A DNA stretch of 64,000 nt from an uncultured Gammaproteobacteria bacterium (GCA_964416445.1 CAYQEE010000006.1:21230-85229), one strand, 5' to 3'. Shown: positions 14,293-51,310, counted from the first letter of the stretch. Program-made: numbers and translations. Notes: generated from the sequence alone by a model not told the origin.

Positions 14293-14293
14293 A

Positions 14294-17639: not shown

Positions 17640-19892
<2,253 letters not shown>

Positions 19893-19902
<10 letters not shown>

Positions 19903-21353: not shown

Positions 21354-21358
21354 CGTTT

Positions 21359-21829
21359 TTATTCTTTTTTATCTTGAATATATTTTTTTAGTGTGTAATC
21401 TCTGGCAAGTCCTCCGGAACCAATAATTGCGCCCGCGATGAGAGTTGGATCTACTTCGATTTTGAAAAGAACTGATCTTTGGTAATTTTTTCGGAACCAC
21501 TCTGCCATCATATCCAACATATTTTCTGTAGGTTGGATTGGCAGAGAGAGTTCAATGAGAGGAAGTGCTGATATTGTCTCTTTGAGAGAAGTAATAAAGT
21601 TTTGCATATCGGTACTATTCGTTTTATTGATTGCATTTGCCGACATAAGTTGTTCGAATTGTTCTTTTTTTTCGTATGACATTATTGTTTTTAAATAAGA
21701 ATCTAGATCCATTTTTTGTGAATAGATACTATTGACCAGTTCATCAAGTTGCCAAAAAAACGCATCAGCGTCTGCTTTTGTCCGAACTAATTGCGTCAAG
21801 TTTTCTTCAGCCAATTTATATGGTGTCAC
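21359..21829 (-). CDS. atpH: ATP synthase delta (OSCP) subunit.
   Basis: The 156-aa protein is in the delta position. Its C-terminus IAGAIIGSGGLARDYTLKKYI is OSCP-like. Confidence 0.7.
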   Translation of the reverse strand: MTPYKLAEENLTQLVRTKADADAFFWQLDELVNSIYSQKMDLDSYLKTIMSYEKKEQFEQLMSANAINKTNSTDMQNFITSLKETISALPLIELSLPIQPTENMLDMMAEWFRKNYQRSVLFKIEVDPTLIAGAIIGSGGLARDYTLKKYIQDKKE

Positions 21830-22499
21830 GTAATAATATATCCTCCTTTTTGGCTTTCTCTAAGGAATCGAGGAGTAATTTTTCATGGTCAGATGTTGAG
21901 ATTGCTCGGCCTAAAAATTCTAATGATACTTTGTGAACGACAGACGTGACATCATTAGCAATTTTATCCATTTGTTCTTTTTTATATGCCTGAAGTTCTT
22001 CCTGCATTTTTTTGAATGATTCATCTGCTTGTTTAACCAAGGTCTCTTGGACGCTTGAGGTTTTATTTGAAAATTCAGCGAGATATGCGTTCATATCATC
22101 TTGAGTGGTTTTGGAAATATTAGTGAACATATCCTGCGTTTGTTGTTCCACAGTCGCATGGAGCGTTTCTAAGTTTTTCTTATATTCACTAAGCAAATCT
22201 TGCACTGTTTTTGCAACAGTTGCGTCTGCATTATCAACAATTTTTTTATTCGTCTCAACAATTTCTTGTTCGAGTTGTGTTCCTTTTTCTGAAGCTTCAG
22301 CTAAAATCCGTTCAGCATCTTTATGGGCATGCAATAATACTTTTTTATAATTGTGAATTGTCCGTTTTTCTTTTTCTTCAAATTTTTCTTCAGCGTCGAA
22401 AACTTTTTTAAAAAAAAGTGCAAACCCGCCAATAGCAACCACTAAAAAACAGGTGAGTACCAACAATAATAAGCCTTCAGAAAGTATAGGCAGATTCAT
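21816..22499 (-). CDS. atpF: ATP synthase Fo b subunit.
   Basis: A single N-terminal TM helix is followed by a long charged coiled-coil stalk. Confidence 0.75.
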   Translation of the reverse strand: MNLPILSEGLLLLVLTCFLVVAIGGFALFFKKVFDAEEKFEEKEKRTIHNYKKVLLHAHKDAERILAEASEKGTQLEQEIVETNKKIVDNADATVAKTVQDLLSEYKKNLETLHATVEQQTQDMFTNISKTTQDDMNAYLAEFSNKTSSVQETLVKQADESFKKMQEELQAYKKEQMDKIANDVTSVVHKVSLEFLGRAISTSDHEKLLLDSLEKAKKEDILLRDTI

Positions 22500-22505
22500 A
22501 TACTT

Positions 22506-23393
22506 TTATAATCTTAACACAAGAAAACCCATAACAAAACCAGTTGCTAAAATAACAATGGCGATAAAGACATTCAGTGCCATACCAATATGAATTTCAG
22601 TACTTGAAAGAGGGTTTCGTCCTAACGCATCAATACCTTTATTTGCTGTCCGTGAAATTAGCACAAAAGCAAATAACAGTGCTAGTGCTACAATACCCCC
22701 AGCGAGAACATACTTAAAAACTAAACTTGGTTGTTCATAGGTTGCCAAGGTACTTAAAGCAAAGATATCAAGTAAACTGGAACGAATATTTGCATTGCCA
22801 ATGAAATAGTGAATATTAAGACTGATAGGAATTTTCCCAATTGTTTTCGGATTACTTGCTGTATAGTCACTGAGCGCAACGCCAATAGTATAACCTGGTG
22901 CGGAAGCTTTTTGTCCAATACCTGAGATAGTGGAACTCGTAATAAAATCACCTTTTTTAATTGGTCCATTGCTTGTTGTAACAAGGATTTGTCCCTGCCC
23001 TGTTGCAACCACGGGATAGAAGGGAATAGGGCCTTGAATGTCTTGGGTAATTGCAGGATTTGCAGTAATAACGCCAACCATAAATTGATCACCGGGAGTT
23101 TTACTTAATGCATAAGTACCATCAGTAAATGAGACAATTTCTCCCTCGCGAATATTCGATGTGCCAATAGGATAATAGTTTGCAGGGGAATAAAGGGTGT
23201 TCGTATCAGTTGCTGCATAGGTAAAGTTTTTTAGTATGGAAGATTGAAAGGAAAAGAGAATAAGAATGATGAGTGAAGTTTCGAAAATTACAAATAACGA
23301 TCGTTTTATTCTAGTTGGTTGTCTCATAAGTACAAGAATAATGGATAAAAATATCCCTCTCATAAGCAAAGCATATTTATCAAAAAAATGCAA
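22506..23393 (-). CDS. Atypical membrane protein occupying the atpB/atpE slot of the operon. It has two N-terminal TM helices, a Gly/Thr/Ser-rich soluble beta domain of about 170 aa, and a C-terminal two-helix hairpin resembling an Fo c-subunit.
   Basis: The C-terminal 70 aa (LAGGIVALALLFAFVLISRT-ANKGIDALGRNP-...IGMALNVFIAIVILATGF) resemble the c-subunit helix-GRNP/ARQP loop-helix pattern. The ion-binding carboxylate position appears to be Asn. The likely start is the ATG at 23363 (MRGIF...). Confidence 0.45.
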   Translation of the reverse strand: MHFFDKYALLMRGIFLSIILVLMRQPTRIKRSLFVIFETSLIILILFSFQSSILKNFTYAATDTNTLYSPANYYPIGTSNIREGEIVSFTDGTYALSKTPGDQFMVGVITANPAITQDIQGPIPFYPVVATGQGQILVTTSNGPIKKGDFITSSTISGIGQKASAPGYTIGVALSDYTASNPKTIGKIPISLNIHYFIGNANIRSSLLDIFALSTLATYEQPSLVFKYVLAGGIVALALLFAFVLISRTANKGIDALGRNPLSSTEIHIGMALNVFIAIVILATGFVMGFLVLRL

Positions 23394-32862: not shown

Positions 32863-33216
32863 TTACCTCATTAACAGTATTATTTGAATCACATAGATAA
32901 AAACGAATAGCCAAAACATTACGGTTGTAATTCCAAGAAATCGGGCAAGTAATGCTATTCTTTTATATACTTTTGATGCAACAACAAGGTTGATAATAAA
33001 GAAGATCATGGCAGTTCCCAGATAGATAAATATATCTATTTTTTGCCCGATCCGTTCATATCCCCAAGGCATTTTATTATACAAGGGAAGAAAAGGGGGG
33101 AGTGCATTATAGGAAAACCCAATAAAAAGAAAACTTGCAATTAACAGGAGAAAGCTGATAAGAAAACCCCAATAGGTAATTTTGTCTTGTCGTAAATGTT
33201 TAAAGAATTTTTTCAT
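32863..33216 (-). CDS. Small membrane protein (3-4 TM), hypothetical.
   Basis: The 117-aa protein overlaps the neighbouring genes inside the operon. Confidence 0.4.
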   Translation of the reverse strand: MKKFFKHLRQDKITYWGFLISFLLLIASFLFIGFSYNALPPFLPLYNKMPWGYERIGQKIDIFIYLGTAMIFFIINLVVASKVYKRIALLARFLGITTVMFWLFVFIYVIQIILLMR

Positions 33217-34687
33217 AAATTGTTGTCCGATCTATAGTAAGTCTAGGTGTATATTGATTGAGCGAATAAGGTAAGGCTGGTTCATTAGGAAAAATTATTA
33301 TATACTTTGGTTTGATTTGTGCAAGTATCATTGCAGTTTCTTTCATATTACTTGCACTACTGTCCATATGATAAGCGACAATAAATCGTCCTAGTGGAAG
33401 GGTATTGGTTATCATATAGATCTGAGGGATATCCCCCCAAATGAAAACTCTATCGTTTGGTTTTTTTGTATTGTTAATATATTGGGCAAGTGTTGCATTA
33501 CGAATAGTAACTTTGTCGAAAAATGTATCATATTGTGCTGTTGATTTTTGTTGCATGGTATAGCCAATGAAGTTTCCATAGTATCCAAACAAATACTTAG
33601 GTATTCGTGTATGCAGTCCAAATGGTATATCAATAAGGATAAGTAAACTCAGCATACCTAGGGTAAAAGGGCGTGAAGTTCTTTTCTGAGAAAACCAAAG
33701 TCCAAAACCTAATGATAAACTGGAGAGAATCATGAGAACGTAATGTGTATATGGCCGTTGCGAAAAGAAAATATCAAACAGAGAAAAAACAATCCAAAGA
33801 AAAATGAATAGCTGTGTATGGGTAAACTTTTTACGGAAATAGAAAAGCAAGAGAGTCAAAAGGCAAAGAATACCAAGTTTTACCATAAGAAGGCCACGAG
33901 GAATAACGAAGGTATTTCCATAGGCGACATAATTAACATTACTAAAAAATGCTGAAATAAAGAATGCATGGAGATTCCCTTGAAAGAAAAAAATAATACT
34001 GGTAAGCAGAAAGGGGACAAAAAAACCAGCAACAAAGATACCCAGTATTTTCATTTGTTTTTGTATTTCTGAAAGTTTTGTATAAGAAATAAAAAAGAGA
34101 TAAATAAAAAATGCCGTAAAATCAAAAAAAGCAACAATTTTTGTAAGAAATGCAATGCCAAGGGCAATACCTGCAATGAGTAATAAAATAAGGTGTGCAA
34201 AAGATGGTTTAGTTACTGGTTTCTGTTGAGCTACCATGTAGACAACGATTGCTGCCAAAAGAATAGGTAGGAGCATGAAATTTTCAGCATTTGCTATATT
34301 TCCCTCCAGAAAGGGTGTTGCAAAGAGAAACGCAAATATTCCTGTTGTAATAAATTGTATCTTTTCCTGCAAAAATAATTTTTTCGAAAGAAAATAAAAT
34401 GCGATGACTGTGCAAAGTCCTACGCATAAAGAGAAAATTCTGACGCTTGTTTGATCGCCATTAAAAAATGCATAGAGTACATATAAAAGTGGTGGTTTAT
34501 TATCCCAAATGCCTGTATATAGGATTCTTCCTTGTTTGAGTGCTGTCCCAATCACTTGATAGATTCCCTCATCCCCATACCAATAAGGTTCAAAAATAGA
34601 GGGCAATCGAAGAAGAAAAAAAAGAAATACCGTGAGGAGAAGAAACCATGTAGATTTTTGCTTCTCAAGTTTATGAAGAAGTTTCAT
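33200..34687 (-). CDS. GT-C-fold glycosyltransferase (ArnT/PMT-like, GT39/GT83-type).
   Basis: The 495-aa protein has about 12 TM helices and a first-loop acidic motif YWYGDEGIY. Confidence 0.65.
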   Translation of the reverse strand: MKLLHKLEKQKSTWFLLLTVFLFFLLRLPSIFEPYWYGDEGIYQVIGTALKQGRILYTGIWDNKPPLLYVLYAFFNGDQTSVRIFSLCVGLCTVIAFYFLSKKLFLQEKIQFITTGIFAFLFATPFLEGNIANAENFMLLPILLAAIVVYMVAQQKPVTKPSFAHLILLLIAGIALGIAFLTKIVAFFDFTAFFIYLFFISYTKLSEIQKQMKILGIFVAGFFVPFLLTSIIFFFQGNLHAFFISAFFSNVNYVAYGNTFVIPRGLLMVKLGILCLLTLLLFYFRKKFTHTQLFIFLWIVFSLFDIFFSQRPYTHYVLMILSSLSLGFGLWFSQKRTSRPFTLGMLSLLILIDIPFGLHTRIPKYLFGYYGNFIGYTMQQKSTAQYDTFFDKVTIRNATLAQYINNTKKPNDRVFIWGDIPQIYMITNTLPLGRFIVAYHMDSSASNMKETAMILAQIKPKYIIIFPNEPALPYSLNQYTPRLTIDRTTIYEKIL

Positions 34688-36177
34688 AATTTTTCAGTTA
34701 CTTTATATTCAATTCGTTTCCCAAACATTAGTTGTGTATGAGAAATAAGGGCTGGAAGAGCGCCAAGGAAAAAACCAACAATAGGAAGTAACACTAATTC
34801 AAGCGGAAAAAGGAATTGCTTTGATTTAGAGACGACATGTCGATCTTTTCTATTTCGAAAATCAATAACAATCATGGTTAACGTTGCAAATATACATGAT
34901 GTTAAGATAAATCCTGCAAGTCGAGGAAGGTTATAACCTAAATCAGTATTCACAAACACAGGATTAACAAGAGGAATGACGTTGGCAGCGATAGTAATAA
35001 TAAACCAGTTTACCGGCCACAAAAAATGATCAAGTAAGACATGATATAACATGAGGGTTTTTCGAAAGAATGGTATTCCAGGAACTGTTAACCACCACTG
35101 AATAAAAAGTGGGTCGTCTGATACACCCCACGACCATCGTCGTTCTTGGTCATATTTATTTTTGAGACTTTTCCAATAATTTGAAGACAAAGGTGCATCC
35201 ATTGAGGTTTGCAGAAAAATTGGATCTACCCATGTATTTCCTCGCAATTTATAAAATGCCTTAAAAAAGATACGGTAATCTTCTGGAATAACATCGGTAT
35301 CCCAATATCCAATATCAACGAGCATTTTATATGATAATGAATACGTGGAATTTGAGACTAAACGGTCTCCTTGAATAAGCAGTGCTGTTCGCCATAAGCT
35401 ACTGAAAAAAGCAAGTACCCGAATAGGTGCCGGAACTTCCCAGAAATTATTATAGTTTACATTTGCTGATTGCCAAAATTTATGATTTCTTTTTGGATCA
35501 TGCAAGAAACTATTGGAAAGATAGGAAAAATATTGCGTATCAAAAATGGAATCTGCATCAACTGAAGAAATTGTTGCATAGTCAAGATCAATTTTTTTTG
35601 TTTTGACTAATCGTTCATATGCTTCTTTGGCGGCAAATGATTCATTGGAAGATTTTCCTTTTACCTCTCCGGCAATGTCAGGATGAAAGGTCGCAAAAAT
35701 ATCACCGAAAAATGGCTTAAATTCATGAATCAATTTGTCTGCTTTTTCAGGTCCTTCCGTTTCTCGTAATTCCATGGCCAGAACAATATATAAACGTTTT
35801 GTGGGAAAAGTTTGTTTGGTTATTGCGGCAAGCGTATGTCGTAACTTTTCATAGCGTTCACAATAATTGGGAATGACAATAATATGCGTAACGTTTTCAA
35901 ATTGAGCATGAGATTTTGCTTTTTCTAACCAATTTTGTGCTTCGGCATCCCGTATTTTATTTGAAGCAATCCACGCCATAATTGCTAATGAAAATGAACG
36001 ATAAAGCCAATAAACATCAAAAAGTAAAATGAAGTAAGCTAAAATATTTGGGAGAAATATCGATCCCCATAACGGGAATAAAATAAGCGTCCATGAAATT
36101 AAACCAGGGATAAGTTCAAGGGTTCGTCTTGTTTTAATAGGATAGCGTATGAAAAGTTTATTGAAAAATGAATTCAT
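34684..36177 (-). CDS. Membrane-embedded processive GT2 glycosyltransferase (cellulose/chitin/hyaluronan synthase-like).
   Basis: Motifs SSVDADS, TDVIPEDY and QERRWSWG (QxxRW) are present. There are N- and C-terminal TM helices. Confidence 0.7.
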   Translation of the reverse strand: MNSFFNKLFIRYPIKTRRTLELIPGLISWTLILFPLWGSIFLPNILAYFILLFDVYWLYRSFSLAIMAWIASNKIRDAEAQNWLEKAKSHAQFENVTHIIVIPNYCERYEKLRHTLAAITKQTFPTKRLYIVLAMELRETEGPEKADKLIHEFKPFFGDIFATFHPDIAGEVKGKSSNESFAAKEAYERLVKTKKIDLDYATISSVDADSIFDTQYFSYLSNSFLHDPKRNHKFWQSANVNYNNFWEVPAPIRVLAFFSSLWRTALLIQGDRLVSNSTYSLSYKMLVDIGYWDTDVIPEDYRIFFKAFYKLRGNTWVDPIFLQTSMDAPLSSNYWKSLKNKYDQERRWSWGVSDDPLFIQWWLTVPGIPFFRKTLMLYHVLLDHFLWPVNWFIITIAANVIPLVNPVFVNTDLGYNLPRLAGFILTSCIFATLTMIVIDFRNRKDRHVVSKSKQFLFPLELVLLPIVGFFLGALPALISHTQLMFGKRIEYKVTEKL

Positions 36178-40630: not shown

Positions 40631-40658
40631 TTGACAGGGCTTGGCAGTCGTGATAAAT
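40631..40658 (+). promoter_or_regulatory. Sigma70-like promoter of the hrcA-grpE-dnaK-dnaJ operon.
   Basis: TTGACA at 40631-40636 is followed by a 16-17-nt spacer and ATAAAT at 40653-40658. Confidence 0.5.
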
Positions 40659-40667
40659 TAGTGCTAA
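40641..40667 (+). promoter_or_regulatory. CIRCE operator (HrcA binding site) overlapping the hrcA promoter.
   Basis: The site TTGGCAGTC-N9-TAGTGCTAA matches the consensus TTAGCACTC-N9-GAGTGCTAA at 7 of 9 and 8 of 9 positions, with exact 9-nt spacing. Confidence 0.65.
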
Positions 40668-40679
40668 GTCTAAAAATAT

Positions 40680-41411
40680 ATGCACGATTTAACTCAACGA
40701 CAAATACAAATATTGAAAAGTCTCATTGAGGAATATATTGAAACTGCAGATGCAGTAGGTTCAGAAACGTTAGAAAAAAAACATAATCTTAGTGCTTCAC
40801 CGGCAACCATCAGAAATGAAATGGTTACGTTGGAAAAACTCGGTTATTTGAAAAAGCCGCATACTTCAGCAGGTCGTGTTCCTACTCCAGTTGCAATGAA
40901 ATTTTATGTAAAACAACTAATGAAGGAGAAAGAATTATCAGTAGCTGAAGAAGTTGCGATGAAAGAGCGAATTTGGGATTTTCGAGAAAAAGAACAACAA
41001 TGTTTGCGAATGCTCACCAAATCACTCGCTGAAAAAACAAAAGCACTTGCTATTACTACTACGCGTGAAGGCGATATATATGCTGCAGGATACGCAAATA
41101 TCTTAGATATGCCGGAATTTTATGATATTGATATTACTAAAAATCTTCTTGCAGCATTGGATGAATATGATGCATTTGAAAGTATGTTTAAAAACTTAGA
41201 ACAAGATGAAGAAGTACATATTTTGCTTGGTGAAGAGTTGGGAACGCGGTTGAATGGACCATATGGATTTGTGTTTACTCGATATCATACACCATTGAAT
41301 TTGACCGGTGAAATTGGAGTTCTTGGTCCAACACGATTGAATTATACAGCAGTCATTCCTGTTGTAAGATACTTTGGAGACCTTATTGCAGAAATTGCAA
41401 AAGGATGGTAA
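40680..41411 (+). CDS. hrcA: Heat-inducible transcription repressor HrcA (short, 243 aa).
   Basis: The N-terminal winged-helix (LTQRQIQILKSLIEEYIETADAVGSETL) and TLEKLGYL are present. It is positioned before grpE-dnaK. Confidence 0.85.
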   Translation: MHDLTQRQIQILKSLIEEYIETADAVGSETLEKKHNLSASPATIRNEMVTLEKLGYLKKPHTSAGRVPTPVAMKFYVKQLMKEKELSVAEEVAMKERIWDFREKEQQCLRMLTKSLAEKTKALAITTTREGDIYAAGYANILDMPEFYDIDITKNLLAALDEYDAFESMFKNLEQDEEVHILLGEELGTRLNGPYGFVFTRYHTPLNLTGEIGVLGPTRLNYTAVIPVVRYFGDLIAEIAKGW

Positions 41412-41427
41412 AAAAGTAACAAACATT

Positions 41428-41925
41428 ATGGATAAAAAACATGAAATCGATTTAGAAGAACAAACCTTAGAAGAGATCGTTGAGAATACGAAAGAAGAAT
41501 CTGATGAACTAGCACATTTACAGAAGAAAGTAACGGATTATGAAGAAAAATATAAAAGAGCAATTGCTGATTATCAAAATTTACAACGTCGAACACAAGA
41601 ACAAAAATCAGAGTGGATTAAATCAGCAAATAAAGATTTACTCTTGAAACTTTTGCCAGTTTTGGATACACTAATACTAGCGGAAAAACATATAAAGGAT
41701 AAAGGCATAGCGATAAGTATCGATCAATTTATAAAAGTTTTACAACAAGAAGGATTAGAACGAATAAAAACAATTGGGGAAAAGTTTGATCCCCATACAA
41801 TGGAAGCAATTGCTACGGCAGAAGGAGAAAACGGAAAAGTTTTAGAAGAAATTCGGGCTGGTTTTCGATTATATGATACGATTCTTCGTTCTGCGCAAGT
41901 CATTGTTGGACAAAAAAGTGCGTAA
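41428..41925 (+). CDS. grpE: Nucleotide exchange factor GrpE.
   Basis: The [14 protein letters not shown] (DFDNFRKR-like) motif and a C-terminal beta domain are present. Confidence 0.85.
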
Positions 41926-42002
41926 GAGATTGTTTAAAAAAAGTGAAGCGTTCACTTTGTTTAAAGAATAAATTACGCTATAATAGAAAGAAGGAAAAAT
42001 AT

Positions 42003-43898
42003 ATGGCAAAAATAATTGGAATAGATTTAGGAACAACAAATTCATGTGTAGCAGTAATGGAAGGTGGATCGCCAAAAGTGATTCATTCCGCAGAAGGAAG
42101 GAATGTTATTCCTTCAGTCGTTGATCCAAAAACACATGTGGTGGGAGATGTTGCAAAGAGACAGTTAGTCTTAAAACCAAAAGAGACAATTTTCTCAGTA
42201 AAACGTCTCATGGGCCGGAAATATACTGACCCATCGGTAAAATATGATCTTAAATGGTTACCTTATACTGTTAAAGCTGGTCGTGATGGAATGGCGGTAG
42301 TCGAAGTAGATGGAAAAACCTATACACCTCAAGAAGTATCAGCAATGATTCTCCAAAAAATTAAAGCAGATGCGGAGAGTTATTTGGGGGACAAAGTAAC
42401 ACAAGCTGTTATTACTGTTCCAGCGTATTTTGACGATTCGCAAAGACAAGCAACCAAACAAGCTGGTGAAATTGCAGGGCTTGAAGTACTGCGTATTATT
42501 AATGAACCTACAGCGGCAGCTCTTGCCTATGGACTTGATAAAAAAAATGCGCATACGATTGCTGTGTATGATTTAGGTGGAGGAACATTTGATATCTCCA
42601 TTCTTGAGCTTGGTGATGGTGTTTATGAGGTAAAGTCTACCAATGGTGATACCCATCTTGGAGGCGATGATTTTGACCAAGCTATTGTTAACTATATTGC
42701 TGATGAATTCAAAAAAGAAAATAATATTGACTTACGAAAGGATCCACAAGCATTACAACGATTACGAGAATCTGCAGAGAAAGCAAAGATTGAATTATCA
42801 TCTTCACAAGAGGCCCAAATAAATCAGCCATTTATTACCGTAGGTCAGAATGGTCCTCTTCATTTGACCATGACCCTTACCCGTGCAAAACTTGAACAAA
42901 TTGTTGATGGATTAATTCAAAAAACGCTAAGTCCAGTACAAAAGGCACTTGATGACGCAAAAATTAAAGTTTCCAATATAGATGAAGTTGTTCTTGTCGG
43001 TGGTATGACGAGAATGCCTAAGGTTATTGAAGCAGTAACGAAATTTTTTGGGAAAGAACCAAATCGTGGAGTGAATCCCGATGAAGTCGTTGCTGTTGGT
43101 GCTGCAGTACAAGGTGGTGTGTTAGCAGGAGAAGTGAATGATGTATTATTACTTGATGTTACACCATTAACATTAGGTCTTGAGACATTAGGCAGTGTTT
43201 CCACGCCATTAATTCCAAGAAATACAACGATTCCAACGTCAAAATCACAAGTATTTTCTACTGCTGCTGATAATCAAACACAAGTCGAAATTAATATTCT
43301 CCAAGGTGAACGTCCAATGGCGGCAGACAACAAATCACTTGGCCGATTCATTCTGGATGGTATTCCTCCTGCACCTCGAGGTGTACCACAAATTGAAGTA
43401 ACCTTTGATATTGACGCAAGCGGAATCTTATCCGTAAAAGCAAAAGATAAAGCTTCTGGAAAAGAACAAAGTATTAAAATTACAGGAAGCACTGGTCTCT
43501 CAAAAGATGAAATTGAGAAAATGACCAAGGAAGCAGAAATGCATGCAAAAGAAGATCAGGAAAAGAAAGATAAAATTGAAGCACGAAATCACGCCGATTC
43601 TCTTATCTTTACTTCAGAAAAAGCATTAAAAGATGCTGGCGATAAAGTGAATGCAGATATTAAAAAAGAGGTTGAAGATAAAATAAAAGCACTCAAAGAT
43701 ATTCTTGATTCAGGAAGTAAAGAAGATATTGAAGCAAAAACAAAAGAGTTATCAGAAAGTCTTTCAAAAATTGGCGAAGCTGCGTATAAACAAGGACAAC
43801 AGGCACAACAAGAAGAGGAAATTGAGAATAAAGAACAAGAAGGAAAAACTGACAACAAGCCAGGTGATGAGCCTGTTGAAGGTGAAGTTGTCAGCTAA
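42003..43898 (+). CDS. dnaK: Chaperone DnaK (Hsp70).
   Basis: [18 protein letters not shown] and a C-terminal EEV-less lid are present. Confidence 0.97.
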
Positions 43899-43970: not shown

Positions 43971-44840
43971 ATGGCAACAAATAATGATTACTATGGTGTG
44001 TTAGGAGTTACCAAAAGTGCAAGTGAAGATGAAATTAAAAAAGCGTATAGAAAATTAGCACTGCAATATCATCCTGATCGAAATAAAACACCTGAAGCTG
44101 CAGAAAAATTTAAAGAAGTCACTCATGCCTATGAGGTTCTTTCTGATCCGCAAAAAAGACAGACATATGATCAATTTGGTGCCAGCGCGTTTGAACAAGG
44201 TGGTCCTGGTGCCCAAGGACCATTTGGGCAAGGACAAGCCGGACAATATGGTCCGTTTAGTTATTCATATTCCACAAATGGTGAAGGTTTTGATTTTGGA
44301 GGGTTTACTGATCCCTTTGAAATTTTTGAACAATTTTTTGGAGGTGGATTTTCTCGGCAGCCGAGAAGGCAAGTCTATTCAATAACCATTGATTTCATGG
44401 ATGCCATTAAAGGAACGACAAAAAAAGTATCAATAAATGGCAAAGAACAAACGATAAAAATTCCTGCAGGTGTTGATACCGGATCCCGTATTCGGTTTGG
44501 TGACTATGATATCCTTATTCAAGTTGCTTCAAGTGACACGTTTACTCGAGAAGGAGATGATATTATTTCTCAGCAGGAAATTACTTTTGCCCAAGCTGCG
44601 TTAGGGACTGAGTTAATAGTGGAAACAGTTGAAGGGAAAGTAACTGTTCGTATTCCTGCTGGTACACAACCAAATGCAGTCATTCGATTACGCGAAAAAG
44701 GCGTTCCTCATGTTAGAGGAAATGGGAGAGGGGATCATTACTTACGAATAAAAGTAACAATTCCTAAAAATTTAACTACAAAACAGAAAGAATTACTGAA
44801 AGAATTTGATTCGGTCAAAGAGAAAAAAGGCTGGTTTTAA
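43971..44840 (+). CDS. dnaJ: J-domain co-chaperone (DnaJ/CbpA-like, no zinc-finger domain).
   Basis: The J domain with HPD (YHPDRN) is present, plus a G/F-rich region and C-terminal CTD I/II. The CxxCxGxG repeats are absent. Confidence 0.85.
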
Positions 44841-44916
44841 TCTTTGTTTATTTGTTTGATTGCGTTCTTTGCTAAAAGAAGATTAAACATCCCCTTCGAA
44901 TAAAAATATCGTCAAT

Positions 44917-45358
44917 ATGCGGCAACAGGCCCAACGAGTATAGGTCAGTACGAGTAGTTTGAACTTACCTACCCTTATTCTGGTAACTATAGCAATCCGA
45001 ATAATCTTGCAATTGCTGATTTAGAAGCAAGGTCGAACTTAAATATATCTGATCGTGTTGAAGCAGTTGTTAATTGGTATGGTTGGAATAATATGTCACG
45101 GCCATACCTTCATCCGATGATACTCCAGTTCTTATTCAGCAAGGACTCAACGATACAACTGTTCCTCCACAAATGTCTACCGATTATTTTAACAAATTGG
45201 TTGCTGCTTATATTTTTACGAATATTCAGTATGTAGCAAATGCAGGACATGAATTTGCAGGAAATAATACCAATTCTGATTATGAGCAAATTGCGCAAAC
45301 TGCTGTTCAGTTTCTTAATGTCCATGTAAAGAACAATGCAAATCCATCACCGCAATAA
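44917..45358 (+). pseudogene. Degraded C-terminal fragment of an alpha/beta-hydrolase (S9/esterase-type), interrupted by an in-frame stop and a frameshift.
   Basis: One frame reads ...RVEAVVNWYGWNN and shifts at about 45105 to ...PVLIQQGLNDTTVP...ANAGHEFAGNN. This matches the HG.nD..VP ... GagHgf C-terminal catalytic His region. An in-frame stop lies upstream (GQYE*). Confidence 0.55.
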
Positions 45359-45752
45359 CAATGCATGTTTGTATTTTCCTGTAATTCTTTTTATACTAAG
45401 TGAGCATCTTCTTATGCCAAACTTTTTACTGCTTGCCATTGACTTCATGAAATTTTGGTACATTGATGCACCAAAAGGATTAATTGATTATTTTTCCTCA
45501 TTAAACGCTTCCTTTTTAAAATTATTTTCATTGAGACTGTTATTAGCAACATTTTTTAAACCATGGAAGAATGAGTATAGACAAGGATTAGTAGGATTTT
45601 CCATGATTATGGGAATGGCAATAAAAAGTATGATTATTGCTTTTGATCTCATTGTGTTTTTTGTGCTGGTCGTTTGTGAGATATTTGCTATTTTTCTTTT
45701 TATTACATGGCCAGTAATTACTATATTATTGTTATTTATTCCTAACTTATGA
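45336..45752 (+). CDS. Small polytopic membrane protein (hypothetical), 4-nt overlap with the downstream Clp ATPase gene.
   Basis: The protein has 3-4 TM helices. The likely start is MPNFLLLAI at 45414. Its stop overlaps the next gene's start (ATGA). Confidence 0.45.
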   Translation: MQIHHRNNNACLYFPVILFILSEHLLMPNFLLLAIDFMKFWYIDAPKGLIDYFSSLNASFLKLFSLRLLLATFFKPWKNEYRQGLVGFSMIMGMAIKSMIIAFDLIVFFVLVVCEIFAIFLFITWPVITILLLFIPNL

Positions 45753-48136
45753 AACAAGAAACATACGCAGTTTTATATCATGCCTATAAGTCGCCTCTTG
45801 CTCGGTTTTTCCGAATTCTATTTGTCTTGCTAATGGTAGGTATTAGTGTTGCTTTTATTTTGATGCACTCGATACCTCGAGGTCCGCTATTCTTCTTATC
45901 AATCTTTTTTATGGCCGAAGTTATCTATCGATTCAAAATATTAAAAATTACTCCACTTATTTCGGTGAACGAAAATACGGGAAAAGATATGTATGCTTCC
46001 TTTACTATGCAAACGCTTGATGCATTCTTTTTTGCTCAAGATCCGCAAGGAGTATTAAAAAATCTTCTGAAAGCAACGAGTGTGCGGTTTATTTTACATA
46101 AAGCAAATATAACAGTTCATGAAATATCCTATGCAAATTTAACTAAAGAACAGATTGGGCAAAAAGCCCTTGAAGTCGTGAAACAAGTAAATGGGAAATT
46201 TGTTACCCGTATGGATCTCATTGCCGCTTGTCTATTACTGACGGAAACGCAAACTCGTTTGCTTTTTTCAAAACGATTGAAAGAAGAGGAATTTATGCAT
46301 ATTCTGTATTGGGCCCGCTCTGAATTTCCCCAAGAAGAAATGCCGGCAAGATCCCGAGTTACCTTTTATGGTGAAGGATTGTTTGATAGTTTTACCACAG
46401 GATGGTCCCTTGAAACTGCGAAATATACAGCTGATATTACGTATAAAGTTCTTGATGAGAAACCAATTCTTATTGGCAGAAGAAAAGAATTTGATCAAGC
46501 AGTTTCCATTCTCTCTCGTCTCTCAAAAGATAATGCATTGTTAGTTGGCGAACCGGGAGCAGGGAAGAGTTCCCTCGTTGATGCAATTGCTTTAGATAGC
46601 TATCTCGGCTACGTACAAGGTCCTCTCGCTCATAAACGTGTTTACGAATTGATGATTGGGTTACTTGTTGCTGGCGTAAAGGAAATGGGGGATCTTGAAT
46701 CAAGATTGCAAAATATCATTGAGGAAATTTCCCATGCTGGAAACGTTATTTTATATATTGCTGATTTAGAAAATATTCTCGGATCACAAACATTTCATTT
46801 AGACTTAACTGGCGTATTAATTCCTTATTTAAGGGGGAAACATGTTCCTGTTATTGCGACAATATCGGCGTCAGCATATCGGAATTTTGTGGAACCGATG
46901 GCAGCCTTTGCCGATTTGTTTGAAATTGTTCGTATTGACGAGTTAGGACGTGATGAAGCTATTCAAATGTTGCTTGAAAAAGCAAGTGAAATCGAAGATA
47001 AAAATCGAGTAACGATTACGTTTAAAGCAATTATTGCTGCGGTCGATTTAAGTCATAGATATTTACAAAATAAAGTATTACCGGGAAGCGCAGTCTCATT
47101 ATTAGACGCTGCAGCTGCAATGAAAAGTGGGAAAAATGCTATTGTTGATGAAACAGATGTTATTGCTAAAATCGAAGAAAAAACGCATGTTGCCATAGCT
47201 ACTCCAGGAGAGAAGGAAAAAAGTCTCTTACTCCATTTAGAAGATAAACTTCACGAACGAATTGTTGATCAAGTAGAAGCTGTAAATGCCATAGCAGAAG
47301 CGTTACGGAGATTACGATCAGGTATCACGTCACAGAATAGACCAATTTCGTTTCTTTTTTTAGGGCCTACGGGAGTTGGAAAAACAGAAACTGCGAAAGC
47401 GTTAGCGGCCGTATATTTTGGCGGAGAAGATAAAATTGTTCGATTAGATATGAGTGAATATACGAGTAGTGATTCAATCAATCGGTTACTCGGTTCGGCA
47501 CCAGGGGGAGGAACCGAAAAAGGAGAACTTACCGAAAAAGTCTATGAGAATCCATTCTCCTTGGTACTTCTTGACGAATTTGAAAAAGCACATCTTGAAA
47601 TCTTGGATTTATTTTTACAAGTCCTCGAAGATGGACGATTAACTGATAATCATGGAAAAACCGTTTCCTTTGCAAATACCATCATTATTGCTACTTCTAA
47701 TGCTGGAGCTCTCTATATTCAAGATGAATTACATCAAGGAAAAAAAGTTGATAAGGAGTTTAAAGCGTCACTGCTTCAAGAAGTTGAAAAAGAGCATTTA
47801 TTCAAACCTGAATTGTTAAATAGGTTTGATGACATTATTGTCTTTGCGCCACTTGGACAACCAGAGATTCAAGCAATTGCGCAGTTATATTTGCAAAAAG
47901 TTATCAGTAAATTGAAAGAACAAGATATTGAAATTACTTTTGATCCACAGGTAGTTCAATTAGCTGCGCAAGAAGGATTTGATCCGCAATTTGGCGCTCG
48001 TCCTTTAAGACGGTTCATACAGGATAAAATTGAAGATGCAATTGCGCGCGCTATGCTTGAAGGAACAATTGGAAGAGGAATGGCAGTGAATGTCTCTCTT
48101 GATCCACAAGGAAACATTACTTTTATCCCAAAATAA
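45749..48136 (+). CDS. Hsp100/Clp-family AAA+ ATPase with two nucleotide-binding domains and an N-terminal double-TM membrane anchor.
   Basis: NBD1 Walker A GEPGAGKSS and NBD2 Walker A GPTGVGKTE are present, with sensor-2 GARPLRR and Clp-N-like repeats. The first ~60 aa form two hydrophobic helices. I found no IGF/L ClpP loop. Confidence 0.75.
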   Translation: MKQETYAVLYHAYKSPLARFFRILFVLLMVGISVAFILMHSIPRGPLFFLSIFFMAEVIYRFKILKITPLISVNENTGKDMYASFTMQTLDAFFFAQDPQGVLKNLLKATSVRFILHKANITVHEISYANLTKEQIGQKALEVVKQVNGKFVTRMDLIAACLLLTETQTRLLFSKRLKEEEFMHILYWARSEFPQEEMPARSRVTFYGEGLFDSFTTGWSLETAKYTADITYKVLDEKPILIGRRKEFDQAVSILSRLSKDNALLVGEPGAGKSSLVDAIALDSYLGYVQGPLAHKRVYELMIGLLVAGVKEMGDLESRLQNIIEEISHAGNVILYIADLENILGSQTFHLDLTGVLIPYLRGKHVPVIATISASAYRNFVEPMAAFADLFEIVRIDELGRDEAIQMLLEKASEIEDKNRVTITFKAIIAAVDLSHRYLQNKVLPGSAVSLLDAAAAMKSGKNAIVDETDVIAKIEEKTHVAIATPGEKEKSLLLHLEDKLHERIVDQVEAVNAIAEALRRLRSGITSQNRPISFLFLGPTGVGKTETAKALAAVYFGGEDKIVRLDMSEYTSSDSINRLLGSAPGGGTEKGELTEKVYENPFSLVLLDEFEKAHLEILDLFLQVLEDGRLTDNHGKTVSFANTIIIATSNAGALYIQDELHQGKKVDKEFKASLLQEVEKEHLFKPELLNRFDDIIVFAPLGQPEIQAIAQLYLQKVISKLKEQDIEITFDPQVVQLAAQEGFDPQFGARPLRRFIQDKIEDAIARAMLEGTIGRGMAVNVSLDPQGNITFIPK

Positions 48137-48147
48137 GCAATATTCTG

Positions 48148-48669
48148 TTAGAGATTATCAAGTTCGTAGTTGCAAAATACTGTCCCCTGCGTCCCACTTC
48201 CGGCACATTGAGTTGTTGGAATGCCATTTGTACAAATACTTGCACATGATGAGGCACATTGTGAACCTATGGTACAGGCTTCGGAATCTTGGGAACCCCG
48301 TTCAAGAGATGCGTAGAGTGCGTATTGGCTACCTGTACTATAATAAACGTATTTTCTTTCGCTGCTCTCTATTGGTAAGATATTAATATATGGTGGCCAA
48401 GGAGATCCCCAAGGAATAACTTTATTTGCATCTTCGTCTTTAATTTCATATTGATTATTCATAGGAGGATAATGGCCATGGGTATTGCGATAGAGTTCAA
48501 GAGCTATTTGGATCTGTTTTAAATCAGTTTTTCTTTTCGAGTCATGTGCTTTTTGTAATTGACCGAGGGGATTAATCAGGAGAATTAAAACAACACTCAA
48601 AGTTCCAATTACCCCAATTACGACAAGTAATTCGAGTAAGGTAAAACCATAGGATCTATTACTCTTCAT
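48148..48669 (-). CDS. Type IV pilin or pseudopilin with a Cys-rich C-terminal domain.
   Basis: The prepilin leader and methylation motif MKSNRSYG/FTLLELLVVIGVIG is present. Six or more Cys lie in the C-terminal 50 aa. Confidence 0.8.
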   Translation of the reverse strand: MKSNRSYGFTLLELLVVIGVIGTLSVVLILLINPLGQLQKAHDSKRKTDLKQIQIALELYRNTHGHYPPMNNQYEIKDEDANKVIPWGSPWPPYINILPIESSERKYVYYSTGSQYALYASLERGSQDSEACTIGSQCASSCASICTNGIPTTQCAGSGTQGTVFCNYELDNL

Positions 48670-48801
48670 AGGTAATATGCTTTTTATTAGTATAGCATGC
48701 TTCGTAAGTGTTATTTCTCGGTTATTTATCGAATAGGCCACCTAGGCGGGATTTGTTTCCGTATTGAAGCAAATTCGCTAATCTGGTATACTTATTCCAC
48801 T

Positions 48802-49815
48802 ATGCCAGCAATTCAAAGAAGTGAATTTTATCTAGCTCTCAATCAAGTAGCTACCGAACGAGGCGTTTCCGTTGATGTTGTACTAGAAAGTGTAAAAAAT
48901 GCTATTCTAGCTGCATACCGGAAAGATCATCCAGATGTTATTATCGAAGAATATGCGGTGACCTTAAATCCAAATACTGGGGAAGCACGAGTATTACACA
49001 ATGATCAAGATGTTACTCCTCCAGGTTTTGGAAGAATTGCTGCACAAACTGCAAAGCAAGTCATTTTACAAAAAGTACGAGAAGAAGAAAAACAAGTTAT
49101 TTTGAATGATTATAAACTCAGAATAGGAACAATTATGAATGGCATGATACTTCGCTTTTCAGGTCCTAATATTATTGTGGACGTTGGAAAAACAGAAGCT
49201 ATTATGCCTCCTCATGAACAAATTCAATATGAAAAATATCATGTAAATCAACGTTTGTCAGTTTATCTTGTTGAAATTCGTGAAGGTACACGAGGCCAAG
49301 AACTGATCGTTTCTCGAGCAAGTAATGGATTACTCGAAGGTCTTTTTCGAAGAGAAGTTCCTGAAATTGCTCAGGGGAATGTCATTATTAAAAAAATAGC
49401 TCGGGAACCAGGAATACGATCAAAAATTGCAGTTGAGGCAACTACTTCAGGAATTGACCCAGTTGGCAGTTGTGTGGGGCAAAAGGGGGTTCGGGTACAA
49501 GCAGTAATTCAAGAATTTGGCGGTATTGAAAAAATTGATGTTATTCCTTGGCAAGAGAATGAAGAAGAATTTATAGCGCTTTCATTATCTCCAGCAAAGA
49601 ACATTCAAGTCACCTTAGACAAAGAGAGTAAAGTTGCGAGTGTAGCTGTTGCAAAAGACGAGCTTTCTGCAGCTATTGGGAAAGATGGCCAGAATGTTAA
49701 ATTAGCTTCAGAATTAACCGGCTATAAAATTGAGATTAATGAAGCAAAAGACGACAGTGCAGCGCCTTCAGATGTACCCTCTTCAGAAACGCCAGAATCA
49801 ACAGAAACTGCGTAA
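48802..49815 (+). CDS. nusA: Transcription termination/antitermination factor NusA.
   Basis: An N-terminal domain, S1 and two KH domains (GxxG: VGQKGVRVQ, IGKDGQNVK) are present. Confidence 0.9.
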   Translation: MPAIQRSEFYLALNQVATERGVSVDVVLESVKNAILAAYRKDHPDVIIEEYAVTLNPNTGEARVLHNDQDVTPPGFGRIAAQTAKQVILQKVREEEKQVILNDYKLRIGTIMNGMILRFSGPNIIVDVGKTEAIMPPHEQIQYEKYHVNQRLSVYLVEIREGTRGQELIVSRASNGLLEGLFRREVPEIAQGNVIIKKIAREPGIRSKIAVEATTSGIDPVGSCVGQKGVRVQAVIQEFGGIEKIDVIPWQENEEEFIALSLSPAKNIQVTLDKESKVASVAVAKDELSAAIGKDGQNVKLASELTGYKIEINEAKDDSAAPSDVPSSETPESTETA

Positions 49816-49867: not shown

Positions 49868-51310
49868 ATGAGTGATAAAAAACACAATACATCGCAAACC
49901 AAGTTTTTCCCGCCGGTTGTCTCCGTGCTTGGCCATGTAGATCATGGTAAAACCACGTTACTTGACGCAATTCGAAAGTCAAATATTGCTGCAAGAGAAC
50001 ACGGAGGAATTACCCAAAAAATCGGTGCATCAACGGTGGAAGTACTCCATGATGGTCAAAAAAGGAAAATTACCTTTATTGATACTCCTGGGCATGAGGC
50101 TTTTTCAAAAATGAGGAGTAGAGGTTCGCAAGCAGCTGATATCGGATTGCTCATTGTCTCTTCCGTCGATGGTGTTATGCCTCAAACGAAGGAATCTATC
50201 CAACTTTTGCAGCAGTCTCATGTGCCATTTATTGTTGTCCTGACAAAAGCAGACGTAGAAGGTAAAAATCCAGAAAAAGTGAAACAGCAATTGATACGGG
50301 AAAACATTATATTGGAAGGTTATGGGGGTGATGTACCTGTTATAGAAGTTTCTGCTCGCACAGGACTGCATATTCCAGAGCTCTTAGATTTGATTCTTTT
50401 GATGTGGGAAATGAAATCATCTACAGCTTCGGAACATGAACCACTGAAAGCTATTGTTATCGAATCTCGGCTTGATACGAAAGCAGGACCTCGGGCGACA
50501 ATTGTTATTAAACAAGGCACAGTTCTAATCAAAGAAGAGCTTGTTACACAATCTACCGAAGGCAAAGTGCGTTCTTTGATAAGTGATACCGGAGCACCTA
50601 TTCAAAAAGCAAGTGTTGGTGAGGCAGTCGAAGTACTTGGGTTTGTAAAAGTACCCTCCGTAGGGGAACTTGTATATCAGAAAAAACATGCTTCCTTGGA
50701 AAAAAGTGTTCATGCCCCGCAAAGTCATCAAGCACCAGCAGAAGGGAAAACACTCTCTCTCTTTCTCTGTGCAGATACTCTTGGTTCTCTGGAAGCTATT
50801 ATGCATGCGTTACCTCCGGAAGTTCATTTAGTTGCGGAAAAAACGGGTGAAATTTCAGAAGGAGATATTTTACTTGCAAAGTCGACAAATGCGCTTGTTC
50901 TTACCTTTAATGTGAGATTACGACCAGATATTATTAAGTTTGCTACAACAGAAAAAGTAATTTTGAAGAACTATACCATAATCTATGAAATGCTTGATGA
51001 AATAACCCAAGTTATCGAAGGGAAAGCATTAGCCCTTATGGAACAGATTTTTGGAGTTGCAAGATTACTTGCTACGTTCCCTTTTGAAAAAACTATAGTC
51101 CTAGGAGTAGATGTCATAGATGGCAGAGTGGCACGCGGAGATAAAGTACGTGTGATGCGCGGAGAAACTTTGGTAGGCGAAAGCATGATTGTCTCGTTAA
51201 GACAAGGCAAAAATACCACTTCGAAAGTAGAAAAAGGACAAGAAGCAGGCTTGATAATATCTCCTGCACTTGACATTACTATAGGTGATATGATAGTATG
51301 CCATAGCTGA
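49868..51310 (+). CDS. infB: Translation initiation factor IF-2 (short form, G domain to C-terminus).
   Basis: GHVDHGKTTLLD, DTPGHEAF and TKAD G-motifs are present. Confidence 0.92.
   Translation: MSDKKHNTSQTKFFPPVVSVLGHVDHGKTTLLDAIRKSNIAAREHGGITQKIGASTVEVLHDGQKRKITFIDTPGHEAFSKMRSRGSQAADIGLLIVSSVDGVMPQTKESIQLLQQSHVPFIVVLTKADVEGKNPEKVKQQLIRENIILEGYGGDVPVIEVSARTGLHIPELLDLILLMWEMKSSTASEHEPLKAIVIESRLDTKAGPRATIVIKQGTVLIKEELVTQSTEGKVRSLISDTGAPIQKASVGEAVEVLGFVKVPSVGELVYQKKHASLEKSVHAPQSHQAPAEGKTLSLFLCADTLGSLEAIMHALPPEVHLVAEKTGEISEGDILLAKSTNALVLTFNVRLRPDIIKFATTEKVILKNYTIIYEMLDEITQVIEGKALALMEQIFGVARLLATFPFEKTIVLGVDVIDGRVARGDKVRVMRGETLVGESMIVSLRQGKNTTSKVEKGQEAGLIISPALDITIGDMIVCHS

Follow-up and report, generated by a model that had tools for sequence, protein, structure and literature searches.

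A predicted membrane-anchored Hsp100/Clp-family ATPase without aromatic pore loops and its inseparable small partner in Patescibacteria

Among AAA+ machines, Hsp100/Clp proteins are the textbook case of polypeptide threading by aromatic pore loops. Here, we analysed two overlapping genes on a 64,000-nucleotide (nt) stretch of DNA deposited as an uncultured Gammaproteobacteria bacterium (GCA_964416445.1 CAYQEE010000006.1:21230-85229), hereafter the window, to which all coordinates refer. The downstream gene encodes a Clp-family ATPase of 795 amino acids (aa) and the upstream gene a small membrane protein of 112 aa. The ATPase represents an uncharacterised variant of the Hsp100 family that is found across the Candidate Phyla Radiation (CPR) and lacks the features that define ClpA, ClpB, ClpC, ClpV or FtsH. 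The family keeps the motor of the second AAA+ ring (D2) and drops the pore aromatics, the catalysis of the first ring (D1), the M-domain and ClpP docking, while it gains a membrane anchor and an inseparable partner. With moderate confidence, we propose that the two genes encode an obligate, Patescibacteria-specific membrane complex, which would work as a D2-driven remodeller that does not thread its substrates. The pair is organised as follows.

45336-45413, plus strand: 5' extension of the longest open reading frame (ORF) of the small gene, probably not translated.
45414-45752, plus strand: small membrane partner gene, 112 aa, with an identical database protein, P0121.
45749-45752, plus strand: ATGA stop/start overlap of the small gene and the Clp gene.
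45749-48136, plus strand: predicted membrane-anchored two-ring Hsp100/Clp-family AAA+ ATPase, 795 aa.
45749-45943, plus strand: N-tail and two-helix membrane hairpin of the ATPase, predicted from hydropathy, AlphaFold2, conservation and charge pattern.
45962-46348, plus strand: putative divergent N-domain of the Clp_N fold, residues ~72-200 (Foldseek, hhalign).
46355-46477, plus strand: family-specific linker between the N-domain and D1 (family alignments).
46478-47152, plus strand: D1 AAA+ module, apparently catalytically degenerate (alignment to Bacillus subtilis (B. subtilis) ClpC, family statistics).
47246-47848, plus strand: D2 AAA+ module with intact catalytic motifs (alignment, family statistics).
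47852-48094, plus strand: D2-small domain (ClpB_D2-small) with the sensor-2 motif GARPLRR (Pfam PF10431, E 2.7e-22).

The translation of ORF 45749-48136 contains the motifs GEPGAGKSS, GPTGVGKTE and GARPLRR, just as an earlier reading of this DNA, made from the sequence alone and hereafter called the original prediction, had described for an ATPase of this length. Pfam recognises AAA (PF00004, residues 264-366, E 1.7e-15), AAA_lid_9 (PF17871, residues 402-468, E 4e-13), AAA_2 (PF07724, residues 533-696, E 6.5e-49) and ClpB_D2-small (residues 702-782). This is the class-I Hsp100/Clp layout, with tandem AAA modules, D1 with its AAA_lid_9 and D2 of the AAA_2 type, followed by the C-terminal ClpB_D2-small. 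The Clp equivalog models of NCBIfam all score far under their cut-offs (ClpB TIGR03346, 472.6 vs 1232 bits; ClpA, 416.8 vs 993 bits; ClpV, 370 vs 885 bits). The ClpA model aligned in one collinear stretch (ATPase residues 129-783, model positions 78-733 of 734) and the ClpB models in two separate stretches. The best sequence match in the Protein Data Bank (PDB) is ClpC of B. subtilis (3j3t/3j3s; E 4e-116 for 3j3t).

To define the family, one genome per GTDB species was scanned with a full-length family alignment (A3); at least 516 species-representative genomes matched, and 80 loci (L001-L080) were studied out of these relatives. The Clp ORFs of the 80 loci and 120 database matches were aligned, giving 200 sequences. 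Five of them are canonical ClpC-like proteins with every motif; the remaining 195 form the family. The motifs of ClpC and of the window protein compare as follows.

D1 pore loop: ClpC AGTKYRGEFE; window protein AGVKEMGDLE.
D1 Walker B: ClpC ILFIDELH; window protein ILYIADLE.
D1 arginine finger: ClpC ALERRFQ; window protein AFADLFE.
D2 pore loop: ClpC SPPGYVGYDEGGQLT; window protein SAPG--GGTEKGELT.
ClpP-docking VGF: ClpC NKYVGFNV; window protein LHQGKKVD.

In D1, the Walker A motif GEPGAGKS is kept, while KYRG is replaced by KEMG, IDELH by IADLE and ERRF by ADLF. Across the family, the DE of the D1 Walker B and the RR of the D1 arginine finger are found in 2 of 195 members each; the P-loop GK[ST] remains in 78, and 73 carry GK-E instead. 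With its Walker B and arginine finger lost, and in many members the Ser/Thr of the P-loop too, D1 appears to be a pseudo-ATPase ring that at most binds nucleotide. The catalytic motifs of D2, which read GPTGVGKTE, LLDEFEKA, ATSN and LNRFD in the window protein, are 95-100% conserved per column (Walker A, Walker B DEFEK, sensor-1 TSN, arginine finger NRF and sensor-2 GAR), with the arginine finger R692 at 98%. Judged by these motifs, every one of which is kept, D2 is the sole plausible motor.

The aromatic pore-1 residue is absent from all 195 members in both rings, as K-[YFW] in D1 and as G-[YFW]-h-G in D2, where a deletion of three residues removes Tyr-Val-Gly. No loop column has an aromatic frequency above 6%. 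The D2 loop is rich in glycine and acidic residues, its columns are just 30-80% conserved, and about half of the family deletes two more positions. The elements with which ClpA, ClpB and Hsp104 grip their substrates thus appear to be gone, without comparable constraint, and the alignments make canonical substrate threading doubtful. The ClpP-docking tripeptide [IVLM]G[FLM] is possible in only one of the 195 sequences, and the VGF of ClpC lies opposite HQGKKV in a loop that is 6 residues shorter, which bears out the absence of a ClpP-docking loop in the original prediction. The D1 arginine-finger motif and the D2 Walker A lie 147 ± 5 aa apart in the family vs 208 aa in canonical ClpC; alignment and spacing agree that the ~60-residue M-domain of ClpC, itself only half an M-domain, is missing. 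Pfam detects no protease domain in the ATPase, and there is no match to Peptidase_M41. Lacking both the ClpP-docking loop and the M-domain, the protein would be neither a ClpP activator nor a DnaK-docked disaggregase of the ClpB type.

An FtsH-like unfoldase or disaggregase had been suggested for this protein. The features lost here, together with the degenerate D1, underlie threading, DnaK-coupled disaggregation and FtsH-type extraction and degradation, so canonical threading cannot be assumed, and we do not retain this suggestion as it stood. In a modified form it is the main rival of our proposal: the ATPase may be a threading unfoldase or extractase of the FtsH/Msp1 kind, or a membrane-proximal disaggregase, that works through pore loops without aromatics or through other residues of the channel, the small protein being its adaptor. 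We regard this as rather unlikely. The D2 motor and D2-small are intact, and aromatic residues may not be absolutely required. However, neither ring of any member has the aromatic residue, the D2 loop has lost its YVG and is glycine/acidic-rich and poorly conserved, an M-domain for coupling to DnaK is lacking, and, with neither a protease domain nor a ClpP loop, extracted clients would have no built-in fate. If threading were nevertheless the mechanism, aromatic pore loops would be dispensable.

The N-terminus of the ATPase can be described as a short tail followed by two hydrophobic helices. The 19-residue Kyte-Doolittle mean reaches 2.66 at residues 20-38 and 1.73 at residues 47-65. The AlphaFold2 model of residues 1-262, made from a 16-sequence family alignment, places helices at residues 3-14, 16-38 and 44-64, with a predicted local distance difference test (pLDDT) score of 88-94 in this block. 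Both transmembrane (TM) columns are filled in 168 aligned relatives, which also display a positive-inside pattern: lysine plus arginine (K+R) amount to 2.4 in the N-tail, to 0.7 in the inter-helix loop, with a median of 8 aa, and to 2.9 in the 16 residues past TM2. Residues Y6 and R22 are invariant in the family, and Y10, Y13, F48, E57 and K63 are at least 90% conserved. The two TM helices of the original prediction are therefore borne out by hydropathy, modelling and charge, and the anchor is predicted to be a two-helix hairpin with both ends in the cytoplasm (N-in/C-in) and almost nothing exposed outside.

Conservation of the hairpin and of Y6, Y10, Y13 and R22 as protein also speaks against a true start past the hydrophobic region, near residue 70, the condition under which the earlier reading of a membrane tether would have fallen. 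It bears equally on the reading that the anchor is an annotation artefact, the true product being a soluble ClpA/ClpC-like ClpP partner that starts past the hydrophobic region, or that the gene is a decaying Clp paralogue. The ~20 nt ahead of the ATG show no Shine-Dalgarno-like sequence on inspection by eye, made without a start-site prediction, and D1 and the pore loops look broken. Against this, the N-tail and hairpin are kept as protein, with invariant residues, in the 168 relatives, the partner gene and the Clp gene keep their stop/start overlap, the D2 motifs are ~98% conserved over several candidate phyla, at least 516 relatives exist in species-representative genomes, and a probable orthologue has a growth defect when disrupted (see below). 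Artefact or decay is accordingly very improbable and, on these conservation data, appears effectively refuted.

Clp-N-like repeats had also been noted in this protein. Pfam finds no Clp_N match in the ATPase, phmmer against the PDB likewise finds none, and sequence methods are blank before residue ~225. At the level of the fold, the comparison points towards this part of the earlier claim. A Foldseek search of the PDB with the modelled N-domain (residues ~80-195, pLDDT ~85-95) returned Clp/Hsp104/ClpV-type N-domains for all of the top 50 matches, most with a probability of 0.9-1.0 and with TM-scores of 0.45-0.58 on the target, but with E-values of only 0.07-0.6. The N-terminal domain of ClpC1 (ClpC1-NTD) is the best match, and ClpC, ClpA, ClpB, Hsp104, ClpV and HSP101 (4iod, 4irf) are among the others. 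An hhalign comparison with Clp_N gave a weak match (probability 57%, E 1e-4, 112 columns); the template set included two TM-bearing members of the family, P0114 and P0115, which makes this probability a weak estimate. PF02861 is precomputed in these two more distant TM-bearing relatives and in P0108. From the model and these comparisons, we conclude that residues ~72-200 probably form a divergent Clp_N domain.

Between the N-domain and D1 runs the family-specific linker, with the motif F206-x-G208-E-G210 ... G218-W219-x-x-E222. Residues F206, G210, G218, W219 and E222 are invariant in alignments A2 and A3, G208 is at least 90% conserved, and distant members have an analogous motif. The motif has a pLDDT below 50 in the isolated N-terminal model, and this disorder fits an interface that needs a partner.

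The small protein is identical to database protein P0121 (112 aa, 100% identity and coverage). Its 58 homologues, of 105-116 aa, are all annotated as hypothetical and all come from Patescibacteria. The original prediction had this gene begin at 45336. The ORF caller picks the most upstream start codon; P0121 and the homologues begin at the ATG at 45414, the conserved start, and the extension 45336-45413 is not represented in their alignment (A4). No match to the small protein was obtained in Pfam, NCBIfam or PADLOC, and a Foldseek search of the PDB with its model gave noise only (E>2, probability <0.15). In the AlphaFold2 model (pLDDT 91), helices at residues 3-37 and 40-45 are followed by a loop, residues 46-56, and by one continuous helix, residues 57-107. 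The loop bears the invariant FFKPWKNEYR, with the pattern FxP(W/L)xxEY.

Three or four TM helices had been expected in the small protein; model, charge bias and fusion architecture point to a single one. The region before the most hydrophobic window carries 8.2 K+R vs 3.8 aspartate plus glutamate, and the short tail behind it has hardly any charge. Across the radiation, the long helix has a conserved G...G...R/K pattern in its first third, with several arginines in Parcubacteria-type members, and this third would thus be juxtamembrane rather than buried. In natural fusions of the two proteins, the hydrophobic helix of the small protein leads over a short loop into a counterpart of Clp TM2, while the Clp N-tail and TM1 are missing. 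As the ATPase must stay cytoplasmic, the partner would be N-in, single-pass and C-out, its TM helix sitting in the place of TM1 in the fusions. A single-pass N-in/C-out topology is therefore most likely for the modelled protein. As a separate observation, in the Levybacteria-type clade a glutamate that is at least 90% conserved lies inside the hydrophobic span of both ATPase TM2 (E57, ~45917-45919) and the partner TM (E89, ~45678-45680); these membrane-embedded glutamates are not conserved in Parcubacteria-type members.

The two genes occur together throughout the studied loci. Loci L001-L033 hold full-length relatives, mostly Levybacteria-type, while L034-L080 align from residue ~225 on and come from metagenome-assembled genomes (MAGs) labelled Parcubacteria, Paceibacteria, Wolfe-, Harrison-, Jorgensen-, Kerfeld-, Wirth- and Saccharibacteria. 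The same N-terminus is shared by over 100 full-length relatives in the databases (43-78% identity, 99% coverage), and the named ones are all Patescibacteria; a Saccharimonadales protein (P0025, 49% identity) is a full-length family member. With a hidden Markov model (HMM) of the small protein, a homologue was found directly upstream and on the same strand in 33 of 33 of the first group. After one HMM iteration, the partner was found upstream in 74 of 80 loci, with one match per locus. Since the ATPase gene of all six loci without a match lies at the end of a contig, the pairing holds in 74 of 74 testable loci, so the co-occurrence expected from the original prediction is found in full. The ATGA overlap, also described there, is seen at 45749-45752, and an exact 4-nt overlap recurs in 20 of 70 unfused pairs; in 62 of the 70, the spacing is within -60 to +30 nt.

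Partner and ATPase are fused in one ORF in at least four lineages; fusions were seen in four loci (L009, L020, L047, L049) and in the database proteins P0092, P0096 and P0101, as well as in the unrelated P0273. A profile search with the small protein over 1.84 billion representatives gave 114 members, counted as representatives at 50% identity, nearly all standalone proteins of 100-150 aa, plus one fusion and one 247-aa fragment; the small protein hence has no other context. Gene order, co-occurrence and recurrent fusion support a genetically inseparable pair and a genuine functional pairing. All parts of the subfamily signature are present in the window protein, namely the TM hairpin, a putative Clp_N-like domain, the FxGEG..GW linker, a degenerate D1, an active-type D2 without aromatic loop and a partner gene of ~110 aa, and this signature is common to the 195-sequence set and to the 74 testable loci, where the partner is upstream or fused. 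The architecture is non-standard, as had been predicted, and a membrane-tethered, ClpP-independent and partner-coupled ATPase is supported. A search of the literature on Clp/AAA+ proteins of CPR/Patescibacteria, on membrane-anchored Hsp100 and on pore-loop-less Hsp100 did not find a description of the family.

Beyond the pair, no third conserved gene is common to the Levybacteria-type and the Parcubacteria/Saccharibacteria-type loci among the 80. The most widely shared neighbour clusters are NusA, IF2, a DnaJ-like protein, ribosomal and translation factors and an unrelated membrane protein, and no recurrent neighbour cluster resembling a type VI secretion system (T6SS) surrounds the pair in these loci. 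The pilin-like gene next to the pair in the window was considered as a module partner and rejected, with a homologue within 10 kb in only 5 of 80 loci. These neighbourhoods also bear on the idea of an anti-phage defence module comparable to Dodola DolB or PDC-M37B. PADLOC does match the ATPase to PDC-M37B (E 3e-37) and DolB (E 4.5e-34), but the matches are confined to the generic D2/AAA_2 region and the small partner has none. Moreover, the pair is inherited vertically among housekeeping genes (dnaKJ, nusA-infB), occurs in all 74 testable loci across the radiation and is neither patchy nor island-borne. A defence role is, in our estimation, the most improbable of the readings considered.

Two side observations came from the same loci. 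Some members form a sub-branch of ~875-930 aa with an N-terminal double CxxCxGxG zinc ribbon, of the DnaJ cysteine-rich type, ahead of the TM hairpin. The carriers are L046, L051, L074, P0108 and P0109, P0114 being listed as well, and the small partner gene is still upstream in the three loci. Furthermore, many CPR-type contigs, with the Clp pair, a short IF2 and dnaK synteny, are titled 'uncultured Gammaproteobacteria bacterium' (L004, L007, L012-L014, L017, L018, L023, L025, L026, L028-L033 and others), and further ones are titled Acidiferrales or Methylomirabilota. Such contigs are probably mislabelled or mis-binned MAGs.

In the window, whose GC content is 36-39%, the pair is surrounded by the following features.

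40641-40667, plus strand: CIRCE-like operator, an inverted repeat TTGGCAGTC-N9-TAGTGCTAA with 3 mismatches to the consensus, 0 expected by chance.
40680-41411, plus strand: hrcA (Pfam).
41374-41925, plus strand: grpE (Pfam).
41943-43898, plus strand: dnaK (own translation and conserved homologues in related loci; no Pfam scan).
43971-44840, plus strand: dnaJ (own translation and conserved homologues in related loci; no Pfam scan).
45092-45358, plus strand: C-terminal Peptidase_S9 pseudogene fragment (E 7.5e-7, profile positions 143-207 of 213).
48148-48741, minus strand: type IV pilin-like gene, also resembling the G protein of type II secretion systems (T2SSG), convergent to the Clp gene and 11 nt from its stop.
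49868-51310, plus strand: infB, 480 aa; nusA also lies 3' of the pair region.

The hrcA gene follows the CIRCE-like repeat at a distance of 13 nt. Between dnaJ and the small gene, a gap of ~570 nt is occupied by a decayed alpha/beta hydrolase of the Peptidase_S9/dienelactone-hydrolase type, the frameshifted remnant of which reaches upstream to ~44950. This pseudogene lies outside the two-gene module and looks like an insertion that then decayed, because dnaJ adjoins the small gene directly in related genomes, at only 37-118 nt in L002, L019, L022 and L025. The order hrcA-grpE-dnaK-dnaJ-(small)-clp-nusA-infB recurs in the Levybacteria-type clade, and CIRCE-like sites stand ahead of hrcA in the window and in L002, L010, L015, L019 and L032. 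Heat-shock co-regulation is thus plausible for the Levybacteria-type lineage and is not a property of the whole family. A promoter and terminator scan of 44700-48900 gave nothing above shuffled expectation. No ClpP, ClpX, Lon or FtsH was found among the ORFs of at least 120 aa scanned with Pfam across the window. As an aside, the infB product lacks the long N-terminal region of typical bacterial IF2, and a short IF2 (median 491 aa) is also kept downstream of nusA in related loci.

A probable orthologous pair is present in the Saccharibacterium Southlakia epibionticum, for which Tables S1 and S2 of a transposon sequencing (Tn-seq) study are available (PMC10633639). SEML1_0700, an 'AAA family ATPase' of 860 aa, has AAA at residues 276-381, a lid at 415-471, AAA_2 at 544-706, D2-small at 713-792 and no Clp_N; SEML1_0701, a 127-aa hypothetical protein, is encoded directly upstream of it and overlaps it (PMC10633639). 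Both genes were scored NE, NE and GD at the three Tn-seq time points, a late growth defect (PMC10633639). Southlakia also encodes a canonical ClpC (SEML1_0512), which carries two Clp_N repeats and a UVR domain, and a ClpP (SEML1_0493), both non-essential, whereas no ClpB or ClpX is annotated (PMC10633639). Since canonical ClpC and ClpP coexist with the probable orthologue, the family would be an addition to the ClpC/ClpP system and not a replacement for it. The pair is also an uncharacterised part of the proteome of CPR bacteria, which is very small. Its function can be tested directly, since this organism is genetically tractable and seems to have both genes.

Based on these data, the proposed remodelling complex can be pictured as follows. 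The large subunit, a divergent class-I Hsp100/Clp protein and presumably a hexamer like its relatives, would be held on the cytoplasmic face of the membrane by its hairpin, with the N-domain and the D1 ring facing the membrane below the anchor. Such a hexamer would be ringed by ~12 TM helices of the ATPase and 6 of the partner. The small subunit, single-pass, would contribute a basic cytoplasmic helical domain, the invariant loop of which may contact the N-domain or the FxGEG..GW linker. ATP hydrolysis in D2 would then lead to remodelling of membrane-associated clients, or of the partner/TM assembly itself, and not to hand-over-hand threading, with the N-domain, the FxGEG...GW linker and the small subunit as mediators. 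This topology, with N-domain and D1 towards the membrane, is compatible with an action on membrane clients. The tail position in the CIRCE/HrcA operon of Levybacteria-type genomes and the DnaJ-type zinc ribbons of distant members suggest a role in membrane-proximal proteostasis.

A more specific version, which we put forward as a tentative possibility, sees in the pair a bacterial counterpart of the Torsin principle. Torsins are Clp/Hsp100-related proteins without aromatic pore loops that associate with the membrane through an N-terminal hydrophobic segment and need the transmembrane partners LAP1/LULL1, and processive threading by them is considered improbable (PMC5425593). By analogy, threading may have been abandoned, and D2 cycling, transmitted via the hairpin and an obligate single-pass partner, might remodel membrane-protein assemblies or the membrane itself in these ultrasmall episymbionts. 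If so, the Clp family would gain a new mechanistic class, one that is conserved throughout the CPR. A non-threading mechanism in general would make the pair a simple prokaryotic model for Torsin-like ATPases.

Several points weigh against the proposed non-threading remodeller. The oligomeric state, complex formation, ATPase activity and clients are predictions only, and missing aromatic pore loops are no proof of missing translocation. D2 keeps its arginine finger, unlike Torsins, so the partner would not be needed to complement the D2 active site. The linkage to heat-shock genes is limited to one clade, is absent in the Parcubacteria/Saccharibacteria-type loci and may therefore be inherited synteny; no CIRCE-like element stands directly upstream of the pair in the window or in the loci, and in the window the pseudogene-filled gap of ~570 nt parts dnaJ from the pair. 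The orthology of SEML1_0700/0701, moreover, is probable from published domain coordinates and gene arrangement, not from sequences. Some of the same data can also be read in favour of a threading extractase or disaggregase: its entry face, formed by N-domain and D1, would point towards the membrane as in FtsH, N-domains of the Clp_N type bind adaptors and substrates in relatives, the pair has a dnaK operon context, some members carry the DnaJ-type zinc ribbon, and the disaggregase niche may be open in Southlakia, which has no annotated ClpB.

The predicted ring of TM helices allows yet another reading, in which ~12 helices of the ATPase and ~6 of the partner would build or gate a membrane pore in line with the AAA+ channel, like HSP101-EXP2 in PTEX, and the complex would act as an ATP-driven membrane conduit or motor that carries a polymer or lipid between the episymbiont and the outside. 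The strict conservation of the TM hairpin and partner TM, the glutamates within TM2 (E57) and the partner TM (E89) in the Levybacteria-type clade and the reliance of CPR bacteria on imported building blocks (PMC11665869) agree with this. However, the external loop has only ~8 aa and the external tail of the partner only a few residues, the membrane glutamates are not conserved beyond one clade, and pore loops that could grip a polymer are missing. Nor are transport genes conserved in the neighbourhood, and the probable Southlakia orthologues are non-essential, with a late growth defect only. We therefore consider a conduit improbable.

Elsewhere in the window, three unrelated observations were made. 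The single tRNA is a tRNA-Ser at 5388-5473 (plus strand), with the anticodon loop UUACUAA and hence the anticodon ACU (ARAGORN; Rfam tRNA 54.8 bits); a serine tRNA with A34 is unusual in bacteria, where GCU normally reads the AGY codons. Large polytopic glycosyltransferase-like proteins are encoded at 12478-17080 and 33200-36177, both on the minus strand. This set comprises a TMEM260-like O-mannosyltransferase with TPR repeats (928 aa), a PTPS_related membrane protein (604 aa), a PMT-family protein (495 aa) and an unassigned 497-aa neighbour, and it points to glycosylation of proteins or of the cell envelope. An F-type ATP synthase operon lies at 17640-23393 (minus strand), in which the alpha, gamma and beta subunits were recognised; three small ORFs adjoining these genes have no Pfam match at E<=1e-5.

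Compared with known systems, the window protein resembles ClpA in the order of N-domain, D1, D2 and D2-small and in having no M-domain, and it also aligns to ClpA chains in the PDB. ClpA, however, is soluble, docks to ClpP through an IGL loop, has tyrosine pore loops in both rings and has two active ATPase rings. ClpB/Hsp104 gives the best NCBIfam score (472.6 bits), shares AAA_2 and ClpB_D2-small and is ClpP-independent, and the window pair lies near dnaK-dnaJ. It differs by its coiled-coil M-domain, used for DnaK docking and regulation, and by its pore-loop tyrosines, whereas the window protein appears to have an inactive D1 and a membrane anchor. ClpC (that of B. subtilis, or ClpC1 of mycobacteria) provides the best PDB sequence match and, with ClpC1-NTD, the best N-domain fold match, but its UVR/M-domain, VGF loop for ClpP and pore tyrosines are all missing from the window protein. 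ClpV/TssH is set apart by a score of 370 bits against a cut-off of 885 and by a neighbourhood that is not T6SS-like.

FtsH, a heat-shock-linked membrane quality-control enzyme, shares with the window protein an N-terminal two-helix N-in/C-in anchor and an AAA+ entry face towards the bilayer. In contrast, FtsH carries a single AAA module with an aromatic FVG pore loop and, fused to it, an M41 zinc protease; a periplasmic domain of ~70 aa separates its TM helices, where the window family has a loop of 8 aa (median). In the PTEX translocon of Plasmodium, HSP101 is a ClpB-type Hsp100 that acts at a membrane with the pore partner EXP2, and its N-domain is among the Foldseek matches. Unlike the window protein, it is soluble, threads its cargo and possesses an M-domain and pore-loop tyrosines. 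Torsins are eukaryotic, reside in the lumen of the endoplasmic reticulum, have a single ring and receive their arginine finger from a cofactor of degenerate AAA+ fold, whereas the window pair would have two rings, a D2 arginine finger of its own (R692, 98% conserved) and a 112-aa helical partner without an AAA+ fold. The likeness is thus one of analogy and not of family membership, and as an analogy a Torsin-like, partner-dependent remodeller, although unproven, appears to suit the pair better than FtsH or ClpB.

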